Assembly (NCBI GenBank): GCA_016183325.1
Contig: JACPEV010000003.1
Location: 18,000 to 81,999 of the forward strand
Reading direction: 5' to 3'
DNA: 64,000 bases
Origin: Candidatus Curtissbacteria bacterium
Lineage (GTDB): Bacteria > Patescibacteriota > Microgenomatia > Curtissbacterales > GWA2-41-24
Below, in pieces: positions 13,421-60,636 of the stretch (positions within the stretch are counted from its first letter, which is position 1; the number at the start of each line of letters is the position of its first letter). Under the pieces are notes generated by a model. It ran no database searches and had not been told where the DNA came from. It worked only from the letters and a program-made list of their open reading frames with translations. The translations under genes and the position numbers were made by a program.

Positions 13421-13556
13421 AGAAACTATATTTAAAAAAAGGCGCTAGTTCGCGCCTTAGACTCTTAACTTTCTAAAATGCAATCGGATTTTAGCAAAAT
13501 AGTATACTTGAGTCAACTTTATGAATGAACAGAGCTTGCTGAAAACCTAAGCCAAA

Positions 13557-13593
13557 CTGTCATTCTGGGGAGCGAAGCGACTCCAGAATCTGA
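13557..13593. repeat. half-copy of a GC-rich composite palindromic element (cattctgg...ccagaat type)
   Basis: tgtcattctggggagcgaagcgactccagaatctga is a perfect nested palindrome. Full composite copies lie at 52661-52772 and 60522-60613. Confidence 0.7.
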
Positions 13594-13644
13594 ACCTAGA
13601 TTTTAAAATTTTGCGTAAGTCGTATTAACTACAAAGTAATATTT

Positions 13645-21033: not shown

Positions 21034-21588
21034 CTAGACTCCAAAATATTCGAGAATATAATTTTTACCATCTGATCTCATTTTGGATTTGTGGATTTTG
21101 AGATTTTTCTTTTTCTTGAGAAAAAAGGTCTCGATCATTCTGTAGTCGCTGGGCACAGCATGAACTTTTATCTTTGGCAGTTCTTTTTTAGTAAACCATC
21201 TGACTTCACCTTCATTTTTAGTTTGGGCAGTATTCTCTTGGGCTCTTGTTTCGCAAACCCAGATCATAAAATGACCAATTTTTGATTTTCCCTTATAAAG
21301 AATCTCCTCGACCGCACCTCGAAGGGCAATAAATTTGATATCAAGACTGCTTTCTTCTTTTATTTCACGAATAATTGCTTCTTCAATCGTTTCGCCGTAT
21401 TCCATTTTGCCGCCCGGCAAACACCAAAGTCCAAAGTACGGCTCCTTGATTCTTTTGATCAGAAGAAATTTATCTTTATAAATAACCGGGGAAGCAACTA
21501 TGTTTAGGATTTGATTCATGGCAATTTCCACAATACCATGATACAATTGTATTGTATGGATTATATCACTACTAATGTTAGGTTTCAT
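21034..21588 (-). CDS. NUDIX hydrolase
   Basis: NUDIX box GGKMEYGETIEEAIIREIKEESSL. 184 aa. Its N-terminal coding segment is duplicated in the chimera at 26961-27254. Confidence 0.8.
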   Translation of the reverse strand: MKPNISSDIIHTIQLYHGIVEIAMNQILNIVASPVIYKDKFLLIKRIKEPYFGLWCLPGGKMEYGETIEEAIIREIKEESSLDIKFIALRGAVEEILYKGKSKIGHFMIWVCETRAQENTAQTKNEGEVRWFTKKELPKIKVHAVPSDYRMIETFFLKKKKNLKIHKSKMRSDGKNYILEYFGV

Positions 21589-21810
21589 AAAGAAGAGTAC
21601 ATGCGGCTAAAAGAGGAGGCGGCAAGAACTCGGAAGAGTTTTTCTGCTATCGTGAGAGAAAAAGTGCGTTCTAAAAGGAAAAAGCTGTCTAAAGCAGAAG
21701 TTGATAAGATAATGGCAGAAACTGAAAAGTTAGCGAGAGAGATAGGTAAGTATACTAAGGGATTTGATTCGGTTAAAGCCTTAAGAGAAATTCGATATCA
21801 TGATAGATGA
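21556..21810 (+). CDS. vapB: ribbon-helix-helix antitoxin (VapB-like). Track ORF starts at 21511; likely start is an internal Met.
   Basis: VRFHKEEYMRLKEEAARTRKSFSAIVREKV RHH motif. The stop overlaps the start of the downstream PIN gene (ATGA). Confidence 0.5.
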   Translation: MDYITTNVRFHKEEYMRLKEEAARTRKSFSAIVREKVRSKRKKLSKAEVDKIMAETEKLAREIGKYTKGFDSVKALREIRYHDR

Positions 21811-22226
21811 TAATCGTCGATGCTTCTGTCGCCAACAAACTTTTTTTGACTCACGAATCAGGATATAAGCAAGTTAAAACAATCTTCAGGAAGCATGTTA
21901 ATGACACTGAAAAAATCCTCGTTCCAGATCTTCTTTTCTATGAAATAGCTAATACACTAGCCACGAAATTAATGGTTCCCAGTGTAAAGATCGGTTTGGC
22001 TCTGAACCAACTTGATAAATACGACCTTGAGATTTTTCGGTCTAGTTTAAAAGATATTTTCAAAATTGCTGTTTTTGCAAAAGAATTCCACGTTTCAGTT
22101 TACGATGCAACATATGCAGTTCTAGCAAAAGAAAAAGGTTGTGAATTGATTACTGCCGATGAGAAATTTGTGAAACAAGTGAATTTGTCTTTTGTCAAAA
22201 GCTTGCAGGATTATTCAGATGTGTAA
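21807..22226 (+). CDS. vapC: PIN-domain toxin (VapC family)
   Basis: MIIVDASVANKLFL..., internal ...FYEIANTLA..., and C-terminal ITADEKF acidic residues. Confidence 0.7.
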   Translation: MIIVDASVANKLFLTHESGYKQVKTIFRKHVNDTEKILVPDLLFYEIANTLATKLMVPSVKIGLALNQLDKYDLEIFRSSLKDIFKIAVFAKEFHVSVYDATYAVLAKEKGCELITADEKFVKQVNLSFVKSLQDYSDV

Positions 22227-22282
22227 AGCTATATCATCCCCGAGGGCGTGAAGTTATTCGGCGTTTTTTTAAATATTCGAGG

Positions 22283-22318
22283 CTAAATACTCTAATACTC
22301 TAGAGTATTAGAGTAATA
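22283..22318. repeat. cassette-boundary palindrome, copy 1 (TACTCTAATACTCTAGAGTATTAGAGTA)
   Basis: 28 bp perfect palindrome preceded by ggctaaa. Copies 2-5 lie at about 24975-25035, 26300-26355, 27262-27327 and 28429-28494. Confidence 0.8.
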
Positions 22319-22357
22319 AAGATAATCATAAAATTACAAAAGCTAGATTTCTTCATT

Positions 22358-22431
22358 ATCCCGACTCGCCAAGCTATTCCAAACCCGGTTCGGAATACGT
22401 TGGCGAGTAAGGTGAGTTCTGCAATTTCTGA
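22358..22431. repeat. conserved ~75 bp hairpin-forming element, copy 1
   Basis: cgactcgccaagctattccaaacccggttcggaatacgttggcgagtaaggtgagttctgcaatttctga. A second copy (about 85% identical) lies at 28513-28593. Both sit just inside the outermost cassette palindromes. Confidence 0.6.
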
Positions 22432-22435
22432 AAGT

Positions 22436-22522
22436 TCAGGCGGGTACGGGAGCGTTTGATGCTATCAAACCTTCATCCTTAAGCTCTGTCCATAATTCTA
22501 CAGGAATCGGAAATTTCACCAT
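22436..22522 (-). pseudogene. probable C-terminal remnant of the aldo/keto reductase gene
   Basis: 29-codon frame MVKFPIPVELWTELKDEGLIASNAPVPA*, resembling AKR C-termini (VELTEEELAAL type). Lies just beyond the GC-rich insert, on the same strand as the AKR N-terminal fragment at 23871-24078. Confidence 0.3.
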
Positions 22523-22819
22523 TTGGAAATTTTCCTCCGCTTCTTTTGGAGTTCTGGCGCCGGGAATTATTGCCGCAACTGCAGAATGGACTTCTCCGCT
22601 TCAGTGTCGGCAGGGCGAGGGCCAAAAAACGAAAGACCCCAGACAAAGAATACCGGGGTCGGCGCGGGTTGGCACGCTAGTTTCTCCGCGGCTTCGGCGG
22701 CTGCGTTTTCCTCAGCTCGGGGCCGAGGACGATGTCGGAGGGCTGTACGAGCCATTAGGCACCCCTTGAACAAAGGATGCCCCTATTATAGGCTTTTCGA
22801 ATGAACCGTCAAGAAGCTA

Positions 22820-23494
22820 CTAAGGGATTTGTTGTGATTTACGCCTCTGGCGTTGGTTTGTGCCGACGTAGTGCTCCACAGCGTTTCGATCCAAGAACCA
22901 TTGCAGCCCGCGCTTCACAGCCGGCAACTTACGGCGTCGTATCAGATAGGCGACGTTGGTGGGGTGACAGCCGAGGATTTCAGCTGCCTCCGCGATCGTA
23001 ACCGTCGCAGAGGGAGACGCGTCTGTTAGCTCCTTCAGCGAAGCGGCATCTACGACGTTATGGAGCTCCTCGACCGCTCCGTTCGTAAAGATGTTGACTC
23101 TTGTGCGTCGCCGATTGGCATTGCACTCAATGGAAAGAACTGCCTGAGCATGCTTAGGCTGGTAACCTGCCGCTATTCTATCTACCGTGTACTCGCGCGA
23201 TTGAGGGTCAAAGGTGCCGGCAATAAACTGTAGCCTGACAAGCCTATCATCAGGATGCACTTGTACGTGAACGGGCGGATCCCCTTCGTTGCCTAGCCTC
23301 CAAACGTAGCCCTTCCCAAAGGACGGATGCTCAAATGCTTCGGCGTCTGTCCCTAATACTGCGTTCACTGCCTCTACCAGAAACGGCTCTCCAGGCCGCC
23401 ACAAACAATGGAGTCCGTCGGTTTCACGCTCTGCAACGGTCGGGTCGGCCGTAACGGAGCTGCGGGTGCCTGCTATTCTCTCCTGGCTGCTCAC
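22820..23494 (-). CDS. protein with C-terminal excisionase/Xis-type HTH DNA-binding domain (on foreign GC-rich segment)
   Basis: C-terminus VTIAEAAEILGCHPTNVAYLIRRRKLPAVKRG matches HTH_17/excisionase-family helices. High-GC codon usage is unlike the rest of the window. Confidence 0.5.
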   Translation of the reverse strand: MSSQERIAGTRSSVTADPTVAERETDGLHCLWRPGEPFLVEAVNAVLGTDAEAFEHPSFGKGYVWRLGNEGDPPVHVQVHPDDRLVRLQFIAGTFDPQSREYTVDRIAAGYQPKHAQAVLSIECNANRRRTRVNIFTNGAVEELHNVVDAASLKELTDASPSATVTIAEAAEILGCHPTNVAYLIRRRKLPAVKRGLQWFLDRNAVEHYVGTNQRQRRKSQQIP

Positions 23495-23616
23495 AACTCG
23501 TATGATTATACCATGGCGCCGTGTTAGTAACGGTAACGAAAGGTGGGATGAAACGGCGGGGGGAGTGACACGCTCCTAAATTTCGTGTAACATGCACATG
23601 TAACGCGGATCAGGTA

Positions 23617-23856
23617 GTGTTTGGATCGGAGACCCTCATGATCCCTCGGGTGACCATCGACGACATCGCCAGCGACACGAGGCTCTCCCGCAAGACCGTG
23701 TCCCTAGCTTTGCGTCACGACCAATCTGTTGCTGCTGCAACACTCCGTCGGGTCCTAGACGCGGCTGAGCGTCTCGGCTATACACGTAGCCGAGCCGAAA
23801 CGGCGCTCCTTGGGGTGGTGGTCCCTTACTTCAATCATCCGTTCTACTCCGAGTAA
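23617..23856 (+). pseudogene. LacI-family transcriptional regulator, N-terminal HTH fragment only
   Basis: VTIDDIASDTRLSRKTVSLALRHDQSVAAATLRRVLDAAERLGYTRSRAETALLGVVVPYFNHPFYSE is the canonical LacI HTH plus the first strand of the sugar-binding domain. It stops after 79 aa at the edge of the GC-rich segment. Confidence 0.6.
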
Positions 23857-23870
23857 TGTTTCGGCTTGTC

Positions 23871-24078
23871 CGAGCGCGTACTTTGGGGCGGTATCGAAAT
23901 AATTAACTCCCAATTTTAAAGCTGTTTTGACTTTACCAATGGTTGCGGCTTCATCCGGGTTCTCAAAATCCAAAAGGCCCGTTCCTAGGCCAAGGCGGGT
24001 AACAAAAACTCCGGTTTGACCAATTTCTACTTTTTGGGTGGGGACGAAAGAGGATTTAGGTCTTTCCATACCGAGCAA
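23871..24078 (-). pseudogene. aldo/keto reductase N-terminal fragment (gene body replaced by the GC-rich insert)
   Basis: MERPKSSFVPTQKVEIGQTGVFVTRLGLGTGLL...LKLGVNYFDTAPKYALGQAETLLG matches AKR N-terminal consensus (LGLG...G.N.FDTA..YG.G.SE.LLG). The frame then runs into foreign GC-rich DNA. Confidence 0.55.
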
Positions 24079-24175
24079 TTATACATCAGGAAGGTTTTTA
24101 AATTTTTAAAACGGTTAAGAATGCTTCTTAGGAGTTGTCCCTCTCACTTTAAAGCTTCGGAGGGCAAGCGACTTA

Positions 24176-24592
24176 TTACTTATCAATCCCGAATCGTTTG
24201 AATTTATTTGATTTATACTGCTTGTCAAAGCTAAAAACTGTATCCAGACCTTTTCCTTTTAGAATTGCCATATTAACACAGTCTGTGAAACGTGAGTTTT
24301 TGGACGTTTGTTTTTTGAAAAGCTCCAAAGCAGAACGCCTGAGAGCAGCATCAACTTCGATAATTTCCATTTGGCTTGCAAGAATTTCTTCTGCAAATTC
24401 TATCGCTTTATTTAAACCGACTTTTTGACTGATAATTGTCACTGCTTCTCCAAAAGCAGGGTCTGAAGTGAATAGTAATATAGCCTGTTCATCTACAAGA
24501 TTACTTAACTCTATTGCTTTTGAGTGGCTTGAATCTTCTATGGTGTTGAGTGCGACAAAAGCATCAGCGTCGACGAGAAGTTTTTTGATCAT
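24176..24592 (-). CDS. vapC: PIN-domain toxin (VapC family)
   Basis: MIKKLLVDADAFVALNTIEDSSH...FTDCVNMAILK. Confidence 0.7.
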   Translation of the reverse strand: MIKKLLVDADAFVALNTIEDSSHSKAIELSNLVDEQAILLFTSDPAFGEAVTIISQKVGLNKAIEFAEEILASQMEIIEVDAALRRSALELFKKQTSKNSRFTDCVNMAILKGKGLDTVFSFDKQYKSNKFKRFGIDK

Positions 24593-24992
24593 TTAGAAAA
24601 CGCTCCAGCCTCTTTTCTTCTGCTTTTGTTAATGTAGTGGTTCTCTTATCCTTACCGTACTTGGAAGATTTTTCTCCGTAAAGATAACTATATAAATTAG
24701 TAGAAAGATCCTTGGGGCCATGGCCTGCATTAGCAGCTAATCTCAAAAGGACGGCCCCAGGATTTTCCTTTTTTCGTTTTTCAATATTAAGACTTTTTTC
24801 CAGAATATTCCTGACAACTTCGGCTGTGGTTTTGCCATGCCTGCGGGCTTCGATTACGAGTTCCCTTTCAATTTCCGGAGTTAAATAAAGCTGTTTTCTG
24901 ATCATGTATACATTATACATCATACATTTATTGTAGCGTGTTGTCAAATTTTGAGCACGGCTAAGAAGGCTTCTTGGGTAATTATTAAACAT
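24564..24992 (-). CDS. vapB: ribbon-helix-helix antitoxin with C-terminal Y.YG.K tail. Likely start is an internal Met (MIRKQLYL...).
   Basis: MIRKQLYLTPEIERELVIEARRHGKTTAEVVRNILEKSL RHH. C-terminal ...LYSYLYGEKSSKYGKDKR resembles the antitoxin at 1512-1766. Overlaps the PIN gene. Confidence 0.5.
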   Translation of the reverse strand: MFNNYPRSLLSRAQNLTTRYNKCMMYNVYMIRKQLYLTPEIERELVIEARRHGKTTAEVVRNILEKSLNIEKRKKENPGAVLLRLAANAGHGPKDLSTNLYSYLYGEKSSKYGKDKRTTTLTKAEEKRLERFLNDQKTSRRR

Positions 24993-25035
24993 TCTAGGCT
25001 AAATACTCTAATGATCTAGATTAATAGAGTGAAGA
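24975..25035. repeat. cassette-boundary palindrome, copy 2
   Basis: gggtaattattaaacattctaggctaaatactctaatgatctagattaatagagtgaag. This variant has gatctagatta at the centre. It overlaps the last codons of the AAC(6')-like gene. Confidence 0.8.
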
Positions 25036-25647
25036 CTCCATTAACCAAGAATCTACTTTTTTGCCTTCGTGCTGTTCGTGATTCTTGAGAATTTTGATTT
25101 TCTTGAAACCGGCTTTTTCGTAGGCTCGAATAGCTCGGGGATTATCGACATGAGGATCAGTGACAACTTTTTTGCCTTGTAGTTTTTTAAAAATGTGGTC
25201 GGTGATCATTTTAAGAACTTGTGGTCCGATACCCTTGTTCCAATATTCAACTTCTCCAATATACATATCCACCGCCCAGATGCCATTTGTATCATCCAAT
25301 TCGTAGTCTTTTGCTTTGATAACCGGATAATATTGAATGTACCCAATTTCTTTGTTGTTGTAGGAAAAAAAACATGGAACAATTTTGTTTTTGCCAAGTA
25401 CCCTTGGGCTATATTTTCTTTTGACCTTAGAAAGATATTGCGGGTTGGTACGACCGCCGTAAAATTCAAGAACTCTTTTGTCTGTTAACCATTTAGCAAT
25501 CTGCCTGTAATCGGATTCTTTATCCTCTATTTGCCGAATTTTTAACTGGCCTTTTTTGAGAAGCATATAAACGGTTAGTTCAAATCGTATTTTCCTATAA
25601 TTTTTGTTGAGCTTGGGTGACATACTGAATTTGTGGTAATAAGACAA
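25021..25647 (-). CDS. GNAT N-acetyltransferase closely resembling aminoglycoside 6'-N-acetyltransferase AAC(6')-Ie. Likely start is an internal Met (MLLKKGQ...).
   Basis: KWLTDKRVLEFYGG, YNNKEIGYIQYY, DMYIGEVEYWNKGIGP, TDPHVDNPRAIRAYEKAGFKKI and HEQHEGKKVDSWLME align motif-for-motif with the AAC(6')-Ie domain of the staphylococcal/enterococcal AAC(6')-APH(2'') enzyme. The alignment is from memory. Confidence 0.7.
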   Translation of the reverse strand: MSYYHKFSMSPKLNKNYRKIRFELTVYMLLKKGQLKIRQIEDKESDYRQIAKWLTDKRVLEFYGGRTNPQYLSKVKRKYSPRVLGKNKIVPCFFSYNNKEIGYIQYYPVIKAKDYELDDTNGIWAVDMYIGEVEYWNKGIGPQVLKMITDHIFKKLQGKKVVTDPHVDNPRAIRAYEKAGFKKIKILKNHEQHEGKKVDSWLMESSLY

Positions 25648-26267
25648 ATTGTCCTGACCGATAACTTCCCAACTTCAACAACTTTTAACTTTTTAATTTT
25701 TTCTAAGAAAAGATTGCTTGGATGGGTAATATATCGGCAGACCGTAATGTTACCGAAAAAGATTTCATCCGATTCGTAACTTTTATTGTCTGGAACGCTT
25801 GCTTTGATTAAATTTTTTCTTAAATCTAGAACTAAATCTTTTAATGAATCATTTGAATAACATCTGATTCCAAGACTGGTTGGGAGTTCGAATAAACCTT
25901 TCACTGTGAATTCTAATTCTTTATGCTTCGGGATTATTTGATCAAAAGCTGTTTTTGCTTTTTCGACGTCCTCATCTGTAAATAACGGTGGATCACTAAT
26001 CGTTCGAATATTTTGAATAGTTAAATGAAGGCTTCGTGGTAGGTAAAAATATTGATTACTGTCTGCTTCTCTGAGAGGTTCAATAATTTTGGAAACAATT
26101 ATTTTTTGAAGATTTTCGGGAATAAAAATAACACTGGTTAAACCAATGCGGTTATCATTTGCATAATCTGCGACAGGTTCAACTATAGTTGTAGGTATTT
26201 TACCTTGTTTAAACTTTCCCTCAAGTTTTTCAAAAAGTTCAAATTGCTTCTTTTGATACGAAATCAT
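25575..26267 (-). CDS. 2H phosphoesterase superfamily protein (LigT / 2',3'-cyclic phosphodiesterase-like)
   Basis: Two H-x-[TS]-x motifs (SLHLTIQN and YITHPSNL) spaced as in LigT/2H phosphoesterases. Overlaps the downstream AAC(6')-like gene by 73 nt. Confidence 0.45.
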   Translation of the reverse strand: MISYQKKQFELFEKLEGKFKQGKIPTTIVEPVADYANDNRIGLTSVIFIPENLQKIIVSKIIEPLREADSNQYFYLPRSLHLTIQNIRTISDPPLFTDEDVEKAKTAFDQIIPKHKELEFTVKGLFELPTSLGIRCYSNDSLKDLVLDLRKNLIKASVPDNKSYESDEIFFGNITVCRYITHPSNLFLEKIKKLKVVEVGKLSVRTICLITTNSVCHPSSTKIIGKYDLN

Positions 26268-26299
26268 GAGGAAATTATATCTTAAGCATCGCCAGAAAG

Positions 26300-26355
26300 A
26301 ATTATTGGAGAATTCCTAAGCTAAATACTCTAATACTCTAGAGTAATAGAGTAAA
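26300..26355. repeat. cassette-boundary palindrome, copy 3
   Basis: gaattattggagaattcctaagctaaatactctaatactctagagtaatagagtaaag. Confidence 0.8.
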
Positions 26356-26371
26356 GAATCCAAGCACTTAA

Positions 26372-26947
26372 TTATGCGAACGAAATGGCAAGGACTATGA
26401 GCATACTTGCAGCAAAGCCGAGCGCTAGTTCTGCCAGAGAATGATGCTCGAGTTGCATGCGAGCCCAACTGATAACTCCCACTAGCGGAAGCGCAATAGC
26501 GTATTGTCGGCCATAGACCACAACAAGTCCGATAACTACGGCCGCAAATACGGCTACATGAAGGCTTGCCTTGATATACAAGTTGAGAATGGTAAAGGCG
26601 AACAAACCAGCTAGCATCATGTAAACAATAAGGCTGAGGTTTTGTGTGAATGACAGGGCATTCATTTCAATGATAAGTATCGGGGTTAGTACCGAAGCAA
26701 CCACAAACAAATAAATCCGCCTTTCCTTACGTTGCGTGACAAAGAGATCGGAGATTATGCCCATCTTCGACATTACAATCTGACATACAATGGGGATCAT
26801 AATAGTTGGAAAGACCAAAGCAATGATCGCAATAATAGCAGAGAAAAAGCTGAGACCTTCGTTATGGATTGCAACTAGTAGCCCACAGAAGCCAACAATT
26901 AATGGGTGAGAAATTAGTGATATTGCTAATGCAATGCGTCTTTGCAT
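26372..26947 (-). CDS. polytopic membrane protein, PAP2-like acid phosphatase motifs
   Basis: Six hydrophobic segments. KASLHVA (PSGH-like) and SWARMQLEHHSLAELALG (SRxxxxxHxxxD-like) resemble PAP2 motifs 2 and 3. Confidence 0.4.
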   Translation of the reverse strand: MQRRIALAISLISHPLIVGFCGLLVAIHNEGLSFFSAIIAIIALVFPTIMIPIVCQIVMSKMGIISDLFVTQRKERRIYLFVVASVLTPILIIEMNALSFTQNLSLIVYMMLAGLFAFTILNLYIKASLHVAVFAAVVIGLVVVYGRQYAIALPLVGVISWARMQLEHHSLAELALGFAASMLIVLAISFA

Positions 26948-26960
26948 TGGGTTTATTTCT

Positions 26961-27254
26961 TTAAATTTTTAATACAGCCAAAAACGCTTCCTGGGGAATA
27001 TCAACTTGGCCAAAGCGGCGCATTCTCTTTTTGCCTTTTTTCTGCTTCTCAAGTAGTTTCATTTTGCGGGTGACGTCGCCGCCGTAGAGTTTGGCGGTGA
27101 CGTCTTTGCGGTACGAGGCGATTGTTTCTCGGGCGATGATTTTGCCGCCCGGCAAACACCAAAGTCCAAAGTACGGCTCCTTGATTCTTTTGATCAGAAG
27201 AAATTTATCTTTATAAATAACCGGGGAAGCAACTATGTTTAAAATTTTGTCCAC
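26961..27254 (-). pseudogene. chimeric gene fragment: NUDIX 5' end fused to lepA 3' end
   Basis: 27140-27250 is near-identical to nudix 21420-21540 ([27 protein letters not shown]). 26961-27140 is about 90% identical to the lepA 3' end 29244-29420 ([59 protein letters not shown]). The junction is at shared microhomology gattttgcc(g)cc. Confidence 0.7.
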
Positions 27255-27261
27255 AAAGTAT

Positions 27262-27327
27262 GGGAGAATTATATCCTACGGGCAATTTCGAATCTAAATA
27301 CTCTAATGATCTAGATTATTAGAGTGA
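27262..27327. repeat. cassette-boundary palindrome, copy 4
   Basis: gggagaattatatcctacgggcaatttcgaatctaaatactctaatgatctagattattagagtgag. Confidence 0.8.
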
Positions 27328-27860
27328 GATTTAATTGATTTTTTTAAAATTAAATCAAGATTTGAATCTTTGATGATTTTGTCTAAATAAGGTAGAAATT
27401 TTTGCTTGTAGAAATTGAATTCTTTTTCGGATTCTTTTGAATTTTTGGTCGTTTCAATCTCGAAAATTTTGCCGACAGTTAATATATTATCTAGATTGAA
27501 GATTGTATTGCCTTTTTTCCAAAGCTCGCGTTTTTTGTAAACAGTAGCTTTAATTCCTAAAACTTTTTTCAGATATGGTAAAAGTTTTTTATCTTTTACA
27601 GAAAGTAGGCTTACTTTTGCTTGGTTGCTTTTGTTTTCTTGAAAAGCTCTTCTTTTGTAATAAATTATGGTTTGTTTCCCTTTCTGTATTCTTAATTTAA
27701 GTCTTGGATGGATCTTGATATCCGATTGAGGTAAGTTGAAAAAGTAATCTTTTTGAAAAAAAGTTCCAACTTTCTTGGCATTTAACTCTTTTAGAATTTT
27801 CCTAATTGGAGAAAAATCGTTGCAAAAATACTTCAGCTCGAGATTAACTTTATTTTGCAT
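27303..27860 (-). CDS. CYTH-domain protein (triphosphate tunnel metalloenzyme / class IV adenylate cyclase-like)
   Basis: N-terminal VNLELKYF (ExExK), spaced basic residues (KLRIQKGK, IIYYKRR) and FEIETT acidic motif typical of CYTH/CyaB folds. Directly follows the GNAT gene with a 0 nt gap. Confidence 0.5.
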   Translation of the reverse strand: MQNKVNLELKYFCNDFSPIRKILKELNAKKVGTFFQKDYFFNLPQSDIKIHPRLKLRIQKGKQTIIYYKRRAFQENKSNQAKVSLLSVKDKKLLPYLKKVLGIKATVYKKRELWKKGNTIFNLDNILTVGKIFEIETTKNSKESEKEFNFYKQKFLPYLDKIIKDSNLDLILKKSIKSHSNNLDH

Positions 27861-28512: not shown

Positions 28513-28593
28513 TCTCGACTCGCAGAGCTATTCCAATATTCCAAACCGGGTTTAGAATACGTTGGCGAATAAGGTTGGCTCTGCAATTTCTGA
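28513..28593. repeat. conserved ~75 bp hairpin-forming element, copy 2
   Basis: cgactcgcagagctattccaatattccaaaccgggtttagaatacgttggcgaataaggttggctctgcaatttctga. Paired with the copy at 22358-22431. Confidence 0.6.
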
Positions 28594-29243: not shown

Positions 29244-31115
29244 TTATATTTTTAATACAGCTAAGAATGCCTCTTGGGGAATATCTACTTGCCCAAAACG
29301 CCTCATTCTCTTTTTGCCTTTTTTCTGCTTCTCAAGTAGTTTCATTTTGCGGGTGACGTCGCCGCCGTAGAGTTTGGCGGTGACGTCTTTGCGGTACGAG
29401 GCGATTGTTTCTCGGGCGATGATTTTGCCCGCCCCCTTCGCCGAGGCTACGGAGGCCGAGCCGATGGCCGCCTGAATCGGTATAGGAATTTGTTGGCGAG
29501 GAATGGCATCTTTTAGTTTTTCGCAAAGTTTTCGGGCAATTTCTTCCGCGCGCACTCGCGGCACTATTTGGGACAGCCCTTCTATCGGTTCGTGGTTAAC
29601 CAGAATATCAAGTTTAACAAGATCGGCCGGGCGATAGTCTGCTATTTCAAAATCTAATGAGGCATAGCCCGAGGTTTGTGACTTGAGCTGATCATAGAAG
29701 CCGATTAAAAGTTCAAGAAGGGGAATTTTCGCTTCTATTTTTAAAAGATTGCCGATTGTTTCAAAATTTTCTTGCTCTCCCCTTTTATCGGTGATAAGCT
29801 TTGACACTACTCCCGAATAAGCCTGAGGAACAAATATCGTAACGCTGGCGATGGGCTCTTTGACGTTTTTTTCAGTCGGGTCAAAATCGCCGGCTTTGTT
29901 GATCAGTTTGTCGTTAACAATGAAATTGACAGAGGGAGAAGTTGTAATGATGTCCAGATCGTATTCACGCTCAAGGCGTTCTTGGGTGATTTGAGCATGC
30001 AAAAGTCCTAAAAAACCAATTCTGAATCCTTGGCCAAGACTGATGGAAGATTCTGTGGTGAAGCTAAGCGATGAATCATTTAGTTTGAGTTTTTCGAGTG
30101 CATCTTTGAGTTTGACAAGGTCTTTGGGGTCTGAGGGGTAAAATGACAGGAAAACAACAGGTTTGGCCGCTTGATAACCAGGAAGTGGTTGAGCCGGCGA
30201 TTTGGGATCGGTGATAGTATCTCCAACTTTTACTTTTGATAAATCTTTAAGGTTAGTTACAACAAAGGCGATCTCCCCGCTGGTTACGTTTTCGACGAAG
30301 TGGGGTTTGGGGGTAAGATAACCTATTTGCAAAATGGTGGCCTTGGCATTCGGGTTGGCCAAAAATAAAATCCGGTCCCCCACATTTATTCTGCCTCCAA
30401 AGACACGGACCGTTGCAACGACACCTTTGTAAGGGTCTAGGGAAGAATCGAAGATTAGTGCTTGGGGTTTGCTCACCCCCGGGGAGCCAGAGCTCACCCC
30501 GGGGGTGTTGCCTGGCGCAGGAATGCGGTCAATTATTGCACGAATAACTGCTTCGACACCCTCGCCGGTTCTGGCGGAGACTTTGATGATTTCTTTTTCG
30601 GAAAATCCAAGAGAGACCAGTTCTTGTGCCGTCTTTTCAATTTGAGCTTGTGGCAAATCAATTTTGTTAATCACCGGAATAATAGTTAAATTGGCTTCAA
30701 GGGCAAGATTAAAATTGGCCAAAGTTTGAGCTTGGATTCCCTGAGTTGCATCGACTACCAGAACTGCGCCTTCTACAGAAGCAAGTGATCGTGAAACTTC
30801 GTAGGAAAAGTCGACGTGGCCGGGAGTATCGATCAAATTCAAAACAAAGTTTTGAATTTGAGGTGAATCGTTAATGGTTAATGGTTCATCGGGAGATTCT
30901 TTTTCAATACGATTAACGATAAACGATGAACGATACACTAATCGTATGGCTTTCAACTTAATGGTGATGCCGTGTTCGCGCTCAAGCTCTAGGCTGTCGA
31001 GAAGTTGTTCTGGGTGATTTTGATCAACTGCACCGCAGATTTCCATGATACGGTCGGCAAGAGTCGATTTACCGTGGTCGACGTGGGCGATGAGGGCAAA
31101 ATTACGAATTTCCAT
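29244..31115 (-). CDS. lepA: elongation factor 4 (LepA), with two short in-frame insertions
   Basis: NFALIAHVDHGKSTLADR, DTPGHVDFSYEV, NKIDLP, and C-terminal LepA domain ending ...[24 protein letters not shown]. Inserts: an about 25 aa segment encoded by TTAACGAT-type repeats (30868-30960) and PAPGNTPGVSSGSPGVS encoded by a GC-rich palindrome (30471-30508). Confidence 0.9.
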   Translation of the reverse strand: MEIRNFALIAHVDHGKSTLADRIMEICGAVDQNHPEQLLDSLELEREHGITIKLKAIRLVYRSSFIVNRIEKESPDEPLTINDSPQIQNFVLNLIDTPGHVDFSYEVSRSLASVEGAVLVVDATQGIQAQTLANFNLALEANLTIIPVINKIDLPQAQIEKTAQELVSLGFSEKEIIKVSARTGEGVEAVIRAIIDRIPAPGNTPGVSSGSPGVSKPQALIFDSSLDPYKGVVATVRVFGGRINVGDRILFLANPNAKATILQIGYLTPKPHFVENVTSGEIAFVVTNLKDLSKVKVGDTITDPKSPAQPLPGYQAAKPVVFLSFYPSDPKDLVKLKDALEKLKLNDSSLSFTTESSISLGQGFRIGFLGLLHAQITQERLEREYDLDIITTSPSVNFIVNDKLINKAGDFDPTEKNVKEPIASVTIFVPQAYSGVVSKLITDKRGEQENFETIGNLLKIEAKIPLLELLIGFYDQLKSQTSGYASLDFEIADYRPADLVKLDILVNHEPIEGLSQIVPRVRAEEIARKLCEKLKDAIPRQQIPIPIQAAIGSASVASAKGAGKIIARETIASYRKDVTAKLYGGDVTRKMKLLEKQKKGKKRMRRFGQVDIPQEAFLAVLKI

Positions 31116-31280: not shown

Positions 31281-31430
31281 TACGAAATTAGTTACTGGAA
31301 ATTTGATAATAGTAATGGAGAGTGGAAAATGGAAAATGACTTAATTAATGCTTTCCAATCTCCCTCAGGGCCGGGCCAGAGGCAAGTTTCGATTACCATT
31401 TTCCAGTTTCTAGTTACCAATCTCTAAATT
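31281..31430. repeat. left arm of long inverted repeat flanking murJ
   Basis: Reverse complement of 33110-33262 at about 85-90% over about 130 bp, including the perfect core ccaatctccctcagggccgggccagaggcaa. Confidence 0.8.
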
Positions 31431-33098
31431 TCACGGGTTTGGCTGTTGGGCGTCGATAGAGGTTGGGGCGGGACTAACCAGGCGGGATGGTAAGGTGATG
31501 ACTTTTTTAACTAAATGATAAAAAATTACGACTTCTTTAACTTTGAGAAGCCAGGATAGAAAAATATAAACTGAAAGACCGATCAGGGTGGCGGTTGCTG
31601 TTAGAAAAATTAATCCGATGGTTCTGGTTGTGTCAAAGACAAGTTGATCTAGAAGTTTCATGGGGATATAGAGTGCAACTGCGGTTAAAAGTGCAATAAG
31701 GCCCATTTTGAATGCTGGAAGAAGTAGCTCTTTTTTGTTAAAAACTACTTTTTTATCCAAAAGATAGAGCAGCAAAATGGCGTTTAAAATGTTGCTTATA
31801 GAGTATGCTAGGGCAAGATAAATGATCGATAGTTTGAGAACTAAAATAAAAATCAGACTTAAGATGATGTTAATACTGACTGTAAAAACATTAACCTTTA
31901 CTGGAGTTAGACTATCTCTTATGGCATAAAATCCTCTCAAAAGAAGAAGACTGACGGCTTGGGCGGCAATACCTATCGAAAAGGCCATCAGCGTTCTGCC
32001 AGTTAAGACTGTGATCTCCCAGGGAAATTCGCGAGCACCGAAGACAAGACGTACAGCAGGAATTCTCAGAATTGCCAGGATGGCAGCAGCGGGCAAAATT
32101 AGAAAGAGAATCTGATGGAAGGAATCGATGAATATCTTTTTAAACTGTTCATATCTTTTGGCATTAAATTCAACAGAAAGTGAAGGCAGAGCTGCCTGGA
32201 CGATACTGCCAGCAAAAAGAGAGATTGGCAAAAGCTGTAAAACTTGGGCGAAGGTAAAGGTAACGATTGAACCTACGGCGACGACTGATGCAAGAGCTAT
32301 GTTTATAATGTCAGAAATTCTAAGAAGAGCAAGAGATATCGACCTTGGCCACATTAAAGCAAATACTTCACGAACATCTTTATTTTTAAAATCCAAGATA
32401 AACGTCACTCGAAACCCTAGGGAAAGAGCGAGTGGCAATTGAATAACCAAATGCAGAAGAGCGCCTAGGACCATACCAACCGCGGGAGCGTAAATGCCCA
32501 AAACAGGAGCTAAAAAAATGATTGAGATAATAATACCGACGTTATAAAAAATCGAGGCAATTGCTGGAATAATGAATCTTTGAAATGATTGGAGAATACC
32601 TGTCAAAAAAATCGAGCCGACAAAGAAAAGTTGGGCAAAAATCATGATACGCATGAGACGGGCGATTAGTGGTTTGGTAAGAGGATCTTGATCCACAAGG
32701 CCAGGAGCAACGATAGGTGCTATAAAATCGGCAGTGGCGACGATTAAAATAGCAAAAATAACAAAAACTAAAAGGGCAGTAGAAATCATGGTGGATGAAA
32801 AATTCCAAGCTTTTTCGAGCTTGTCGTGGGAGAGAAATTTGGAGAAAACTGGAATGAAAGCCAAGGCAATTGTTCCGAAGATCAAAACTTCAAATATGGC
32901 ATCGGGTACGATTGAGGCAGCGATGAAGCTATCCAGAAGATGAATATTATCACCAAAGTAAGAGGCTAAAAGACGGTAGCGGATCAGTCCTAAGATCCTG
33001 GAGATGGCGACCGAGGCAACGATAACAAAGGCGGCAGTAAGGATATTTTCTTGTTTTCTCTTGAAAAAATCAGTGCCATTTTTGAGGATGTACAGCAT
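31431..33098 (-). CDS. murJ: lipid II flippase MurJ (MviN)
   Basis: 555 aa polytopic membrane protein with MurJ N-terminal signature ...ILTAAFVIVASVAISRILGLIRYRLLASYFG... Confidence 0.85.
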   Translation of the reverse strand: MLYILKNGTDFFKRKQENILTAAFVIVASVAISRILGLIRYRLLASYFGDNIHLLDSFIAASIVPDAIFEVLIFGTIALAFIPVFSKFLSHDKLEKAWNFSSTMISTALLVFVIFAILIVATADFIAPIVAPGLVDQDPLTKPLIARLMRIMIFAQLFFVGSIFLTGILQSFQRFIIPAIASIFYNVGIIISIIFLAPVLGIYAPAVGMVLGALLHLVIQLPLALSLGFRVTFILDFKNKDVREVFALMWPRSISLALLRISDIINIALASVVAVGSIVTFTFAQVLQLLPISLFAGSIVQAALPSLSVEFNAKRYEQFKKIFIDSFHQILFLILPAAAILAILRIPAVRLVFGAREFPWEITVLTGRTLMAFSIGIAAQAVSLLLLRGFYAIRDSLTPVKVNVFTVSINIILSLIFILVLKLSIIYLALAYSISNILNAILLLYLLDKKVVFNKKELLLPAFKMGLIALLTAVALYIPMKLLDQLVFDTTRTIGLIFLTATATLIGLSVYIFLSWLLKVKEVVIFYHLVKKVITLPSRLVSPAPTSIDAQQPNP

Positions 33099-33109: not shown

Positions 33110-33262
33110 ACTTGCGAAACTCGAAACCTAGAAATTGGTTACTGGAAACTGGAAATTGGTAATGGAAATTTGCCTCTGGCCCGGCCCTGAGGGAGATTGG
33201 AAATTAGTTAGGAGCTATTTTCCCATTTTCTACTTTCCACTTTCCATTACTACTTTCTCTTT
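33110..33262. repeat. right arm of long inverted repeat flanking murJ
   Basis: ttgcctctggcccggccctgagggagattgg plus flanking ggaaattggtaatggaaa-type sequence. Inverted relative to 31281-31430. Confidence 0.8.
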
Positions 33263-37929: not shown

Positions 37930-38060
37930 ACTTGAAGAGCGATCTTTGGCGGATCAGTCTATAAACTGAAAGGTGGAGAGGATTTGGTTGAATTAAAATC
38001 GGAGCAAAACCGCGGCGCATACTTTTATCTTGGCAGTTTTGGCGCAGTTTTACAAATTCT
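37930..38060. repeat. gene-end mini-repeat: 3'-end motif plus promoter/5' start of the secreted-protein family, without a gene body
   Basis: ctgaaaggtggagaggatttgg (the QILSTFQF-encoding 3' motif) is joined directly to attaaaatcggagcaaaaccgcggcgcat (the MRRGFAPILI start) and the conserved upstream cttggcagtttt promoter region. The same arrangement recurs at 38820-38905. Confidence 0.65.
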
Positions 38061-38819: not shown

Positions 38820-38905
38820 TACTTTTAGCGGATCAGTTAATAAACTGAAAGGTGGAGAGGATTTGGTTGAATTAAAATCGGGGCAAAACCGCGGCGCATA
38901 CTTTT
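38820..38905. repeat. gene-end mini-repeat, second copy
   Basis: ttagcggatcagttaataaactgaaaggtggagaggatttggttgaattaaaatcggggcaaaaccgcggcgcatac is near-identical to 37930-38010. Confidence 0.65.
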
Positions 38906-39203
38906 ATCATGGCAGTTGGAGAGAAAAGAGTCAAAGTTTCAATGAGTCTATGAAATACCAAAACCACGCAATAGCGTGAAAGTGGTATGTGGACCGTTTT
39001 GGTTGCTAGGGTAAACTCAGTGATGAATCTTACAGCACATTGTCATTGCGAGGAGTCCTTCGACTTCTCTCAGGACGAGAAAGCAATCTAATACATAAAA
39101 AATTGATTCGTTTCACTCGCGATGACAAATGTAATTATCCAGTTTAAAGATCTAAAGGTGAAGCAGATTTGTTTCTAACTTAATGGGATTTCTCACTAAA
39201 AAG

Positions 39204-40250
39204 TTATTTAAGTCTTTGATATTTCACCCCATCCCAATCTAATAGTTCTTGATTAAAATCATAACTAGTAGAAATAGGTCCGCCAGACTCACTTTTTGCA
39301 TTCAATAAATTATTCTTACATGAATAAAAACCACTCTCTGAGAAATCGGAGTGATTCCACTCGAAAGTTGACTGTCCATAGTCTGAAAGAGTTGTTCCCT
39401 CTTGAAATTGTATACTCCAATAACCCATTTCAGCTCCATTTGGTCCAAGTCCAACCTCATGCTTATCTACCGAACGAAAAGTAGAATTACTAAAAAGAGT
39501 ACAAAAATCTGAATTATTTGGTCCGATCTGGGAATTTAAAAATTTAAAGGTGGAGAGGATTTGGTGAAAAACTCCAAGAATATCATTCTTTTTAAGATAA
39601 GTATCCCAATAATGAATGACGATCACTATCAGTGAGCCATCAAAATTGCCGGGTATATAGTATGTTTTTGTTATCTGCGATGTATGATTTGATTCATAAA
39701 TACAGAGTGGATGGGAGACTTGCACCATTGCCCTGACATTTCCTATTATTACTTCGTTCGGTTCATTCAAGTAATATATACCGGCTGGTCCTTGGCAGGC
39801 TATTGGCGTCTCGCTTAGGTTAATTTTCCAGAAAGAACTTTTGGGATTAAATAATTCTGCTTGCGTAATTTCCTTTTCTCCATATTTTTTTCTAAATTCT
39901 GTTGTTTCTACTGATATTTCTCCATAAACTCTGCTAGGTTGATCTATTTCATAATAAATTTCTGCATTTCGGGCTTCATTTTCGAAATCAGCATTAGTGT
40001 TACTAATGATTTTAAATTGCCAAGAATCAGGGTATTTCAGGGTAAATTTTCCCACTGTATTTGTATATGTCTTCCAATTGGCCCCGATTGAATCGGGGTT
40101 AGCTGTTTCGTCGGTTGAAGATGGGGACGGTGATGTTGTTGATTGAGGTTGTGATTGAGTTTTAGGTTTACTTTGCTGATATAGAAAGGCTCCGATTACA
40201 GAGATAGCAACTATGATTAGAATTAAAATCGGGGCAAAACCGCGGCGCAT
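39204..40250 (-). CDS. secreted protein of unknown function (MRRGFAPILIL / YTNxxGKFxLKYPxxW family) with internal QILSTFKFL motif and C-terminal extension
   Basis: Signal peptide, S/T/P-rich linker, WKTYTNTVGKFTLKYPDSWQF start of the mature domain. Paralogous to 36307-37182 and the partial gene at 63577-64000. Confidence 0.6.
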   Translation of the reverse strand: MRRGFAPILILIIVAISVIGAFLYQQSKPKTQSQPQSTTSPSPSSTDETANPDSIGANWKTYTNTVGKFTLKYPDSWQFKIISNTNADFENEARNAEIYYEIDQPSRVYGEISVETTEFRKKYGEKEITQAELFNPKSSFWKINLSETPIACQGPAGIYYLNEPNEVIIGNVRAMVQVSHPLCIYESNHTSQITKTYYIPGNFDGSLIVIVIHYWDTYLKKNDILGVFHQILSTFKFLNSQIGPNNSDFCTLFSNSTFRSVDKHEVGLGPNGAEMGYWSIQFQEGTTLSDYGQSTFEWNHSDFSESGFYSCKNNLLNAKSESGGPISTSYDFNQELLDWDGVKYQRLK

Positions 40251-40495
40251 AATTTTATCTTGGCAGTTTTCGGGAAACTTTACAAACTATACCCCAAATT
40301 CTTTTGGTATACTGAGAAACTATAAGTATTCACCTTTTTCCAATGTCATCCTCGCGAAAGCGAGGATCCAGCTTCAATTAAATAGATTCCCGCATTCGCG
40401 GGAATGACAAGTGGGGGGCGGGAATGACAAATTAACTAAAAACTTAAATTTGCCATCAATTTCTTTTGGTATACTGAGAAACTGACTTTCCCAAG

Positions 40496-48439: not shown

Positions 48440-49024
48440 TTGGTTTCTTCTTGTCGGACTTCGTCAGCGAGGATGACAGTTTTGGGTTATCATGAAATGA
48501 TGGAGGATAACCAACCGCAAAGTTTAGAAGATTTAAACAGGTTATCTCAGCAAAAACAAGAAAAGGAGGCTTCTGTTTTTGGCTATATTATTATCAGCCT
48601 TATTATCCCCCCGTTTAGTACTGCTTGGGCCATGTATCGCGCTTGGAAAAAAGGTGTTTTATATCGATTTGTTCCGGTATTAACAATTGTCTATACGATT
48701 CTTTTTGCACTGTATAGTTGGCTTCTTTTGTCTTCTCCGGGTGCAGTTTCGAGTGTTTTAGGTAAGAATCTACTGAAACAACCAGAAGTACCCAGCGGCC
48801 AAAATACAATATTTGTGATTATGACTGTAGTTTTGACAATAGCCGGGATTGTGGGCGGTTTTTATCTTAGAAATAAAGCGCAGAAAGAAGATACGCTTCC
48901 AACTGTTATGATTTTAGCTCTAATTTTCATTTTGCTATTGCAGTTTTGGGTCGGATTTTCAGAACTTTCATTTGTGGGCTCGATAATAAATCAGTCGGTC
49001 GGGAATATTTATGAAGGTTTGTAG
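48440..49024 (+). CDS. membrane protein, unknown function
   Basis: 194 aa with four hydrophobic helices. Confidence 0.4.
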   Translation: MVSSCRTSSARMTVLGYHEMMEDNQPQSLEDLNRLSQQKQEKEASVFGYIIISLIIPPFSTAWAMYRAWKKGVLYRFVPVLTIVYTILFALYSWLLLSSPGAVSSVLGKNLLKQPEVPSGQNTIFVIMTVVLTIAGIVGGFYLRNKAQKEDTLPTVMILALIFILLLQFWVGFSELSFVGSIINQSVGNIYEGL

Positions 49025-49243
49025 TCAAATTTTGTAGAGCAAAATGCCGTTTTGGGATTTTTCTGGTTTTTTGGTGGGGAAAGGGATGGTTTTGTCGGTG
49101 TTGACGATGATGCGAGCTCCACGCTTGGCGTTTTGATAGACGAATTTTTCAAATCTGGGCATGGTTTTGGCGCGGCCGTAGACGAAAATGACATCGGCTT
49201 CTTTGAGATCGGCTTGCCAGAGGTCTTTGCGAATCACTATCAC
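49025..49243 (-). pseudogene. duplicated 3' fragment of the methyltransferase gene at 49998-50600
   Basis: 49041-49200 is near-identical to 50010-50170 (...DLWQADLKEADVIFVYGRAKTMPRFEKFVYQNAKRGARIIVNTDKTIPFPTK...). The duplication ends at a GC-rich palindrome (49241-49270). Confidence 0.7.
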
Positions 49244-49964: not shown

Positions 49965-49997
49965 GGTAGCTATTTATATAAAAAAGTGCTTTAGAAG

Positions 49998-50600
49998 TCA
50001 AACTTTATAGAGGTAAAAGCCGTTTTCGGCTTTAGTAGGGTTTTTGGTGGGGAAAGGGATGGTTTTGTCGGTGTTGACGATGATGCGAGCTCCACGCTTG
50101 GCGTTTTGATAGACGAATTTTTCAAATCTGGGCATGGTTTTGGCGCGGCCGTAGACGAAGATAACGTTGGCTGATGACAGATCGGCTTCCCAAAGATCTT
50201 GACGCTTGATGGTGATGGTTCCTTTTTTTATTGTTCGAGCCTGTCGAGAACTAATAATCAAAGACTTCTCGACTCGCTGGCGCTCGCTCGAAGAATAACC
50301 AAGAAGGCCTGCTTTAAATCTTGTAAACATCACCAAAAGCGGATTGAGTTCGTAGCCAATGGCGTGAGCACCTTTTTTGGCCGCTGCAAAGAGCAGACGG
50401 CCGTCACCGGAGCCAAGATCAATAACCGTATCACCTTTTTTAATCGATGCAAGTTTGATAATCGTTGAGATTTTATCTCTTCTGGTGGCAACGTACGGCA
50501 GTTCTAAAAAAGCATCGAAGGCAAAAAGAAGAAAAATAATCAAAAGATAAAGTAAAAGAAGAATAATTAGGAACAAGAAAATAATTATTATGATTTGCAT
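49998..50600 (-). CDS. membrane-anchored class I SAM-dependent methyltransferase
   Basis: N-terminal TM helix. SAM motif I VIDLGSGDGRLLFAAA. An in-frame MITE-derived insert (50228-50296) encodes ...GYSSSERQRVEKSLIISSRQARTI... Confidence 0.65.
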   Translation of the reverse strand: MQIIIIIFLFLIILLLLYLLIIFLLFAFDAFLELPYVATRRDKISTIIKLASIKKGDTVIDLGSGDGRLLFAAAKKGAHAIGYELNPLLVMFTRFKAGLLGYSSSERQRVEKSLIISSRQARTIKKGTITIKRQDLWEADLSSANVIFVYGRAKTMPRFEKFVYQNAKRGARIIVNTDKTIPFPTKNPTKAENGFYLYKV

Positions 50601-60613: not shown

Positions 60614-60636
60614 TTTGACTTAGGTTTTCAACAAAC

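Follow-up and report, generated by a model that had tools for sequence, protein, structure and literature searches.

An aldo/keto reductase gene interrupted by a GC-rich block of probable foreign origin in a Candidatus Curtissbacteria bacterium

Introduction

Illegitimate and homology-facilitated illegitimate recombination of foreign DNA has been described for transformable bacteria, i.e., Acinetobacter and Streptococcus; the joins are made at short microhomologies, DNA of the recipient is deleted simultaneously, and neither repeats nor recombinase genes accompany them. In this work, we describe a locus of a Candidatus Curtissbacteria bacterium in which a GC-rich block of about 1.25 kb lies inside an aldo/keto reductase (AKR) gene. 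The locus is part of a stretch of 64,000 nucleotides (assembly GCA_016183325.1, contig JACPEV010000003.1, positions 18,000 to 81,999), referred to as the window, and all coordinates are those of the window. As in the transformable bacteria, a microhomology is found at the joins, a candidate one of 6-7 bp at the right junction of the block and a clear one of 8-12 bp at a second junction nearby, where partial copies of lepA and of a NUDIX gene meet; unlike in those bacteria, no homologous anchor is visible for the block, and the mechanism is read solely from the anatomy of its junctions.

In Patescibacteria, hundreds of islands and single-gene transfers from diverse donors have been reported, reaching up to 13% of the genome length (Gios et al. 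2025, mSystems, PMC12455944), and regulator genes of other phyla have been acquired too, a lysR regulator being one of the transferred genes (PMC12455944). The block shares with these islands a compositionally atypical DNA that carries regulator genes within a streamlined genome of the Candidate Phyla Radiation (CPR). It differs from them in that it is a sub-genic slice that cuts a donor gene and destroys a recipient gene, and in that both of its breakpoints are resolved to ~10-15 bp. Since transfer into Patescibacteria is already well documented (PMC12455944), the event is ordinary gene transfer accompanied by gene decay, and it adds an example rather than a principle. Its value is that of a clean, assembly-supported case in which a foreign sub-genic fragment was joined to a CPR gene, and it exemplifies the gain and loss of sequence in streamlined Patescibacteria, with short, random foreign slices, a rearrangement-prone island and the loss of a resident gene.

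An interrupted aldo/keto reductase gene and the block within it

The elements of the locus are the following (HTH, helix-turn-helix; aa, amino acids).

22436-22600, minus strand: AKR C-terminal remnant (HSAVAAIIPGARTPKEAEENFQMVKFPIPVELWTELKDEGLIASNAPVPA*), with its stop codon at 22436-22438; recognized with Pfam and protein P0003
22589-22603, no strand: left junction zone, where AKR homology is lost in the comparison with P0003 (..PLAHPAVAAIIPGAR..); in-frame TGA at 22601-22603
22604-23853, no strand: foreign block, taken as a contiguous slice of a donor locus from its composition and its synteny with contig L017
22820-23494, minus strand: intact 224-aa gene; beta-rich domain at residues ~29-147, HTH_17 at residues 165-210
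23495-23616, no strand: divergent intergenic region of 122 bp between the 224-aa gene and the LacI relic
23617-23856, plus strand: LacI-family relic of 79 codons from a GTG, or 72 from the ATG at 23638; HTH, hinge and first strand (..LLGVVVPYFNHPFYSE)
23848-23856, no strand: right junction zone, TCCGAG(T), a reading shared by LacI and AKR
23848-24069, minus strand: AKR N-terminal remnant (MERPKSS...VNYFDTAPKYALGQAETLLG); from Pfam, P0002 and PDB alignments

The most prominent feature of the block is its composition. The 1,250 bp between 22604 and 23853 have 56.6% G+C versus about 40% elsewhere in the window (0.566, z = 5.5, with all other 1250-bp windows as reference, whose maximum is 0.479). 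In 200-bp windows the G+C content is 53-60% from ~22500 to ~23900 and 33-42% in both flanks, and among the 64 bins of 1 kb the one at 23001-24000 ranks first, with 55%, and is the sole bin above 48%. The tetranucleotide distance of the block is the largest of 503 windows (z = 9.5). Third-position G+C (GC3) is 0.59 in the 224-aa open reading frame (ORF) and 0.66 in the LacI ORF, versus 0.30-0.39 in six neighbouring genes; the C-terminal and N-terminal AKR pieces have values of 0.36 and 0.39, respectively. Given that the GC3 shift is confined to the genes of the block, it is the block, and not the AKR pieces, that departs from the host in composition. Atypical base and oligonucleotide composition, atypical GC3 and absence from close relatives, by which horizontally acquired DNA is recognized, are all found in the block.

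The two AKR pieces are located on the same strand and in the correct order. The ORF at 23755-24078 (minus strand) matches positions 1-52 of the 291 of the Pfam Aldo_ket_red profile (PF00248, E 6e-8), and it aligns to residues ~5-70 of solved AKRs (PDB chains), the alignment ending at ..GQAETLLG. The C-terminal piece (22436-22600, minus strand) matches positions 252-287 of the same profile with an E of 0.0026, and it shares 57% identity with the C-terminal end of P0003, a D-threo-aldose 1-dehydrogenase from JGI, which corroborates the Pfam match. Clear AKR homology of this piece starts at the His codon 22586-22588, and the remnant extends to ~22588-22600 (..HSAVAAIIPGARTPKEAEENFQMV..), about 70-80 bp beyond the position 22522 at which it was previously thought to end; therefore, the block measures ~1.25 kb, and ~200 codons (~0.6 kb) of the AKR gene are missing. 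A word-seeded search of 5.8 billion proteins with both AKR pieces returned the ORF of the window itself and one C-terminal fragment of 57% identity, and no other protein.

The central part of the AKR family carries the catalytic Lys and His. In the N-terminal piece the ..FDTAPKY.. segment, with the Asp and the Tyr, is retained; of a complete (alpha/beta)8 barrel with its Asp-Tyr-Lys-His residues, only the part that corresponds to profile positions 1-52 and 252-287 is left. The gene is a pseudogene that keeps the Asp/Tyr region and has lost the part bearing Lys and His. The N-terminal stub is annotated at NCBI as an 'aldo/keto reductase' of 104 aa, a length that is reached because the frame continues through 31 antisense-LacI codons to 23755.

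The LacI-family ORF is truncated as well. It matches positions 1-45 of the 46 of PF00356 (E 1.7e-9), its only Pfam match, and covers positions ~4-81 of NCBIfam LacI models of ~330-340 residues; the whole effector-binding and dimerisation core, of ~260 residues, is absent. The HTH headpiece and the hinge are typical of LacI/GalR repressors, and their divergent neighbour arrangement is kept in contig L017 (see below); in contrast with these repressors, which join the headpiece to a periplasmic-binding-protein-like core, the ORF has the HTH and the hinge only. It is a headpiece-only relic and not a regulator. Both this ORF and the annotated 'aldo/keto reductase' are relics that call for marking as pseudogenes.

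These results agree in most respects with what an earlier note had proposed from the sequence of this region: AKR pieces on the minus strand split by foreign DNA (here, profile positions 1-52 and 252-287), a GC-rich block with a different codon usage (seen in the 200-bp, 1-kb, tetranucleotide and GC3 profiles, the tetranucleotide check having singled out the block as the strongest outlier), an excisionase-type HTH protein (HTH_17 and TIGR01764), and a LacI-family regulator that stops after its HTH domain (the cut falls after residue ~79). Two of its measures had to be revised. The block was placed correctly inside the AKR gene, but its size of ~1.35 kb is now ~1.25 kb, and the C-terminal remnant, given as 22436-22522, is indeed of AKR origin (PF00248 and P0003), with its end point moved to ~22588-22600.

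The same junctions in eight separate assemblies

The locus was followed in the Logan per-run assemblies of SRR12113383, -384, -385, -419, -420, -422, -428 and -430. The 224-aa protein was found with an identical sequence on seven contigs, six of which could be read and are Logan assemblies of six SRA runs; lookups of neighbouring proteins added two runs, for a total of eight. All eight assemblies match the window at 100% identity but for one single-nucleotide polymorphism (SNP) at 23735, so more than one molecule is represented among the runs. The stretches of the window that the contigs cover are listed below.

L001, 21477-27050: both junctions covered
L002, 22358-27047: both junctions covered
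L003, 21603-24913: both junctions covered
L004, 22384-25254: both junctions covered
L005, 22384-24706: both junctions covered
L006, 22144-23765: left junction covered
L021, 23431-27050: right junction covered
L023, 23582-24609: right junction covered

The ends of the contigs fall on genuine repeats (21404, the hairpin copy at 22375-22431, and the lepA copy at 26961-27150), and never at the junctions. In the Logan contigs neither of the PIN genes nor the 230-aa neighbour was found to adjoin an intact AKR gene, and exact matches of these three neighbours occur in the same run series only, always together with the disrupted locus. Within the Curtissbacteria population that was sampled, the disrupted locus is at or close to fixation. 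Among 5.8 billion proteins, the 224-aa protein and the LacI fragment are represented only by identical copies, those that could be traced being in the same context, and no full-length LacI with the headpiece of the relic is present among them. No separate context of the block was found, and there is therefore no co-occurring 'parent' contig that could have been mis-joined. With this evidence from assembled contigs, a chimeric origin of the junctions is effectively refuted and the junctions are regarded as real.

The SNP (C in the window, A in SRR12113430) falls in a second codon position of the LacI relic, and it is consistent with relaxed constraint and some microdiversity in the population.

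Anatomy of the junctions

At the right junction, TCCGAG (23848-23853) encodes the final Ser-Glu of the LacI relic (..NHPFYSE), while its complement encodes Leu-Gly in the AKR motif ..ETLLG; likewise, the TAA stop codon of the relic is the antisense of an AKR Leu codon. The codons of the L017 LacI gene at the matching point are CAC CCC TTC TAC ACC GAG TTT. A microhomology of 6-7 bp is thus a candidate at this end.

The ends of the block were also compared with those of known mobile elements. Terminal inverted repeats, direct repeats or a target-site duplication were not detected at either end, given that no repeat pair coincides with 22589-22603 and 23848-23856. No integrase or transposase is present in the block or next to it among the ORFs and Pfam matches, those within the block being HTH_17 and LacI only; no tRNA gene lies in the window, and self-BLAST of the window did not reveal a second copy of the block. 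In consequence, an insertion sequence, a transposon or a miniature inverted-repeat transposable element (no terminal repeats, target duplication, transposase or second copy) and an integrative element with its excisionase (no integrase, tRNA or flanking direct repeats) were discarded as descriptions of the block. A structured RNA was discarded as well, as no Rfam match was obtained at E <= 1 in 22300-24200.

A donor-like locus

The closest family member of the 224-aa protein by percent identity is encoded on contig L017 (JGI Ga0451373_77355, 4.8 kb, 60% G+C). In this contig a LacI-family gene is divergent from the gene of the 224-aa family, as in the block. The identity with the window is 49% over 67 aa for the LacI HTH and hinge, and 40-46% for the family gene. 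The LacI sequence of L017 continues (..NHPFYTEFHQLMEDV..) where the copy in the window stops (..NHPFYSE), and goes on into a Peripla_BP_3 domain. From this shared order it was concluded that the block is a contiguous slice of a donor locus that was cut inside the LacI gene. Another close family member also lies on a contig with 60% G+C (L018), and the G+C content of the donor, as judged from sequence, is probably about 57-60%.

The LacI gene of L017 (1469-2460, minus strand) is itself split over three frames (HTH at 2230-2430, middle part at 2044-2277, core at 1469-2008), and it may be either a decaying gene too or the product of assembly errors.

A search for the donor lineage, as the earlier note had advised, produced this syntenic relative with 60% G+C and no named taxon: tblastn of the 224-aa protein against 50,697 phage and 72,556 plasmid records gave no match; a scan with the family profile of GTDB species genomes, JGI metagenomes and IMG/VR recovered only unrelated HTH_17 domains; a 36-mer taken from the block had no exact occurrence in viral contigs; and the clusters of 18 family members and of several neighbours were singletons, apart from that of the GroEL of L014, which is from Curtissbacteria. 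The description of both pieces as 'actinobacterial-style' could not be upheld, given that 57% G+C is not diagnostic, that the nearest relatives of the block, with 36-46% identity, lie on unclassified metagenome contigs (two of them with 60% G+C), and that a distant family member, P0015, sits in Curtissbacteria.

Proposed origin of the locus

We consider it likely that a donor fragment of ~1.25 kb, with a G+C content of 57-60%, was joined into the AKR gene by illegitimate recombination with the loss of ~0.6 kb. The composition break, the domain truncations, the reproducible junctions, the synteny with the donor-like contig and the lack of mobile-element hallmarks are observed; from them we infer how the DNA was joined, in how many steps, by what route it entered and in which genome. 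A contiguous chromosomal fragment of a GC-rich organism would have been joined to the low-GC AKR gene, about 200 codons of the latter would have been lost, and both joins would have been made by illegitimate (non-homologous or microhomology-mediated) recombination and not by a transposase or an integrase. This type of joining is proposed because repeats, tRNA, integrase and transposase are absent and because one end cuts through a gene. The fragment would represent a random slice of a locus in which a LacI regulator is divergent from a family gene encoding a beta domain and an excisionase-type HTH; the slice would have retained the 224-aa gene in full, together with its promoter region, the first ~79 LacI codons and ~215 bp beyond the 224-aa gene. 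The replacement may have taken place in one step, or through a larger insertion followed by deletions.

The insertion with deletion by horizontal transfer, one of the two explanations that had been put forward for this region, is therefore the one that is supported by the eight assemblies, the composition break and the domain truncations. The suggestion of gene flow into a CPR-like genome is likewise sustained, since the organism is named Candidatus Curtissbacteria bacterium at NCBI.

Several points weigh against this interpretation. The junctions are supported by assembled contigs, and not by reads or coverage, and the eight runs may be a series from one site rather than independent samples. 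The exact breakpoints and the microhomology are inferred, because neither an intact AKR gene nor a donor with more than 50% identity is at hand for comparison. The Pfam match of the AKR C-terminal piece scores below the gathering score. Finally, part of the G+C excess of the 224-aa gene may reflect amino-acid composition: the family gene also exceeds its surroundings by 6-14 points of G+C in four low-GC contigs, a difference that could be due to amino-acid composition or to repeated transfer. The scope of this last argument is limited by the fact that the LacI relic and the non-coding parts of the block are equally GC-rich.

The accessory island around the locus

The locus is part of a larger region that is variable among related strains.

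21512-27139, no strand: accessory island of ~5.6 kb, bordered by duplicated pieces of NUDIX (5' part) and lepA (3' part), with RHH-PIN, the AKR gene with the block, PIN-RHH, GNAT and two unknown genes

Two contigs of related Curtissbacteria (L027 and L028) are collinear with the window across ~28 kb, with 75-82% nucleotide identity. In both of them the gene order is lepA, one variable gene, GNAT, NUDIX and hrcA, the island and the block being absent, and the interval from lepA to NUDIX-hrcA is 1.6 kb versus 7.7 kb in the window. Self-BLAST of the window revealed a partial copy of the 3' end of lepA at 26961-27150 (191 bp, 93.7% identical to 29244-29434) and a partial copy of the 5' end of the NUDIX gene at 27139-27247 (109 bp, 98.2% identical to 21404-21512). 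These pieces are fused through a shared ATTTTGCC(G)CCC, a microhomology of 8-12 bp, which is the signature of a tandem duplication or of homology-facilitated illegitimate recombination. This second, independent junction lies within about 3.5 kb of the block, and therefore joins of this kind occur in this lineage.

Since the AKR gene sits in a strain-specific island, the replacement may predate the arrival of the island in this genome. The mosaic of AKR gene and block could have been made in another low-GC organism and have arrived ready-made with the ~5.6-kb island, an explanation that we regard as possible although unlikely. The absence of the whole island from both relatives favours it, as does the lepA 3' copy that bounds the island, which has diverged by 6% from the resident lepA and fits an import from a related strain; besides, no close intact homologue of the AKR gene is present in any sampled genome. 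However, two other relatives, L032 and L033, share the left end of the island (RHH and PIN beside NUDIX) with 82% nucleotide identity, and the island is therefore old in the clade, at least in part. The unameliorated composition of the block (GC3 of 0.59-0.66) argues for a recent event; the block may be older or younger than the island.

Several repeats with 87-97% identity occur within the island (22375-22431 and 28537-28593; 22282-22316 and 26320-26354; 24994-25040 and 26316-26362). They correspond to a strong hairpin and to two intergenic stretches that resemble promoter regions, and Logan contigs break at them; their function may be that of terminators or operators common to the toxin-antitoxin modules, or they may serve as recombination substrates.

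The 224-residue protein and the mobile-element explanation

The 224-aa gene is, judging from its sequence, the only potentially functional cargo of the block. The C-terminal 46 residues of its product match HTH_17 (PF12728, E 1.4e-10) and also the TIGR01764 'excisionase family'. A HMMER search against 1.84 billion cluster representatives gave 112 matches with E < 1e-3, about 35 of them aligning over both domains; the best family members show only 38-46% identity, and all are metagenomic singletons. The protein thus belongs to a rare, unnamed and unannotated family. Motifs conserved in the N-terminal domain of this family are WRPGE..F, HP.(F/Y)G.G..W, Q(T)REY..D.I and G.I.E.H, and the 224-aa ORF aligns with the family over its full length, keeping the conserved W32, R100 and G139 as well as the HTH.

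The AlphaFold2 model of the protein has a mean pLDDT of 85, with values >90 for residues 30-150. Using Foldseek, the C-terminal domain of the model superposes on the Xis protein of mycobacteriophage Pukovnik (4j2n) at 1.3 A, and the best fold match of the N-terminal domain is the immunity protein CdiI of the contact-dependent inhibition (CDI) tRNase toxin of Klebsiella pneumoniae 342 (6cp9), with a target-normalised TM of 0.73 and a root-mean-square deviation (rmsd) of 3.7 A over 117 columns, at 6% identity and an E of 7e-3. Both share one helix followed by a run of beta strands; no toxin gene adjoins the 224-aa gene in the window. The CdiI-like fold is a lead only. The protein would most likely act as a DNA-binding regulator that has a further domain for the binding of a protein or a ligand. 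A defence system was discarded, since the PADLOC matches correspond to the generic HTH only.

The family member P0015 belongs to another Curtissbacteria genome, is 26-27% identical, and adjoins the genes for CTP synthase and GroES/EL. Its gene is directly upstream of a BrnT-type toxin gene in L016 (277-957 and 1054-1362) and of a CopG/BrnA-type antitoxin gene in L014 (6001-6681 and 7058-7333). In the table of a review, the entry for the 6cp9 toxin cites BrnT as a structural neighbour (2.5 A rmsd); the adjacency of P0015 to BrnT and the likeness of 6cp9 to BrnT may be a coincidence in a region rich in toxin-antitoxin modules.

Two by-products of the locus may outweigh the event in value: a rare family that combines a CDI-immunity-like beta domain with an excisionase HTH and has a conserved LacI neighbour in one relative with 60% G+C, and a possible clue to the donor or the host when a sequence of that lineage becomes available. 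It could further be imagined that the block was captured from a host or close physical partner of this episymbiotic-type CPR bacterium as naked DNA through microhomology, and that the 224-aa gene, as a new class of regulator (a CdiI-fold sensor or neutraliser with a Xis-type HTH), was retained owing to its action in the toxin-antitoxin-rich island. We give this proposal little credence; if true, the block would be a molecular fossil from which the host lineage might be traced.

The same protein is the basis for another explanation, in which the block is what remains of a site-specific mobile element (prophage, integrative element or transposon) and the 224-aa protein is the excisionase or recombination directionality factor of that element. 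The matches of the C-terminal domain to HTH_17, to TIGR01764, to PHROG excisionase families and to 4j2n agree with this proposal, and so does the abundance of toxin-antitoxin modules in the region. However, it is very unlikely, as the integrase or transposase, the terminal repeats, the target duplication and the tRNA are all missing, and the block ends inside the LacI gene, unlike a site-specific element. The protein is not a small stand-alone Xis: although the HTH_17 domain is present, its 224 aa include an additional conserved N-terminal beta domain of 120 residues that true Xis proteins lack, and neither a partner integrase nor att sites accompany it. Moreover, five homologues (L014 and L017-L020) occur in unrelated chromosomal, non-phage contexts without integrases, BFVD matches span only the HTH of ~47 residues, and the phage and plasmid records mentioned above gave no match.

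Assembly artefact and native DNA

An artefact of assembly or library preparation, in which reads of a GC-rich organism were mis-joined to those of Curtissbacteria, would account for the abrupt composition step, and it is true that metagenome-assembled genomes can be chimeric. In such a case, the junction is expected in a single assembly and the parental contexts are expected apart from each other. Instead, eight separately assembled runs agree on the junctions and five contigs span both of them, the contigs break at repeats (21404, 22358-22413 and 27047-27050), and neither a full-length LacI gene nor another context for the 224-aa gene was found in these runs or elsewhere. An artefact also requires two mis-joins that place the piece precisely, and in the correct orientation, between the two parts of one gene. 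The chimeric assembly that the earlier note had offered as an alternative is hardly credible.

The possibility that the GC-rich stretch is native DNA under functional constraint (a structured RNA or an unusual protein composition) is negligible, since the G+C richness that homologues of the 224-aa gene show to some degree even in low-GC contigs is countered here by an excess that is greatest at third positions (0.59-0.66 versus 0.30-0.39) and that covers the LacI relic and non-coding parts, by the lack of an Rfam match, by the interruption of a gene, and by the existence of related species without the block.

Other features of the block and of the window

The remaining features of the block and its border are these.

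22364-22408, minus strand: strong hairpin just 3' of the AKR stop codon; inverted repeat I1, with 22-nt arms
22625-22672, minus strand: GC-rich, terminator-like hairpin (stem 22635-22660) followed by TTTCGTTTTTT; -22.6 kcal/mol, z = -3.3
22785-22812, minus strand: promoter-like site TTGACG-16-TATAAT (11/12 match), directly after the 224-aa gene

In the divergent spacer, a TATAAT is located 10 nt upstream of the GTG start codon of the 224-aa gene (minus strand), and for the plus strand a scan indicated a promoter-like site (23565-23593). The spacer of L017 has the same layout, with ~135 bp, and aligns weakly to that of the window. No LacI operator could be recognized in the spacer, where only a weak, imperfect symmetry and the weak similarity to L017 were seen.

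The left end of the block consists of about 215 bp of unassigned DNA beyond the 224-aa gene. The hairpin at 22625-22672 was missed by the consensus terminator scan, probably because its loop exceeds the 8-nt limit of the scan. On the 3' side of the promoter-like site, a Shine-Dalgarno-like AAGGGG and an ATG (22755) open a frame of 62 codons that crosses this hairpin and the left junction and stops at 22567. This frame has no match in Pfam or Rfam; it could represent a third donor gene of which only the 5' stub is left, or a leader or small RNA.

The hairpin 3' of the AKR stop codon has a folding energy of -32 kcal/mol (z = -5.6, minus strand) and a second copy at 28537-28593 with 88% identity. 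It probably acts as the native bidirectional terminator that separates the PIN and AKR genes.

The region at 27200-27800 has the lowest G+C content of the profiled region (25-30%) and is the second-strongest tetranucleotide outlier. It spans a CYTH-domain gene (27303-27860) that adjoins the junction of the NUDIX and lepA copies and that is absent from this place in the relatives L027 and L028. Scattered repeats of 50-200 bp with 82-96% identity are also present in the window, both direct (49023-49227 and 49996-50200; 37945-38038, 38824-38917 and ~40220-40286) and inverted (50627-50728 and 58757-58858; 31310-31432 and 33123-33252; 13533-13599 and 60571-60637).

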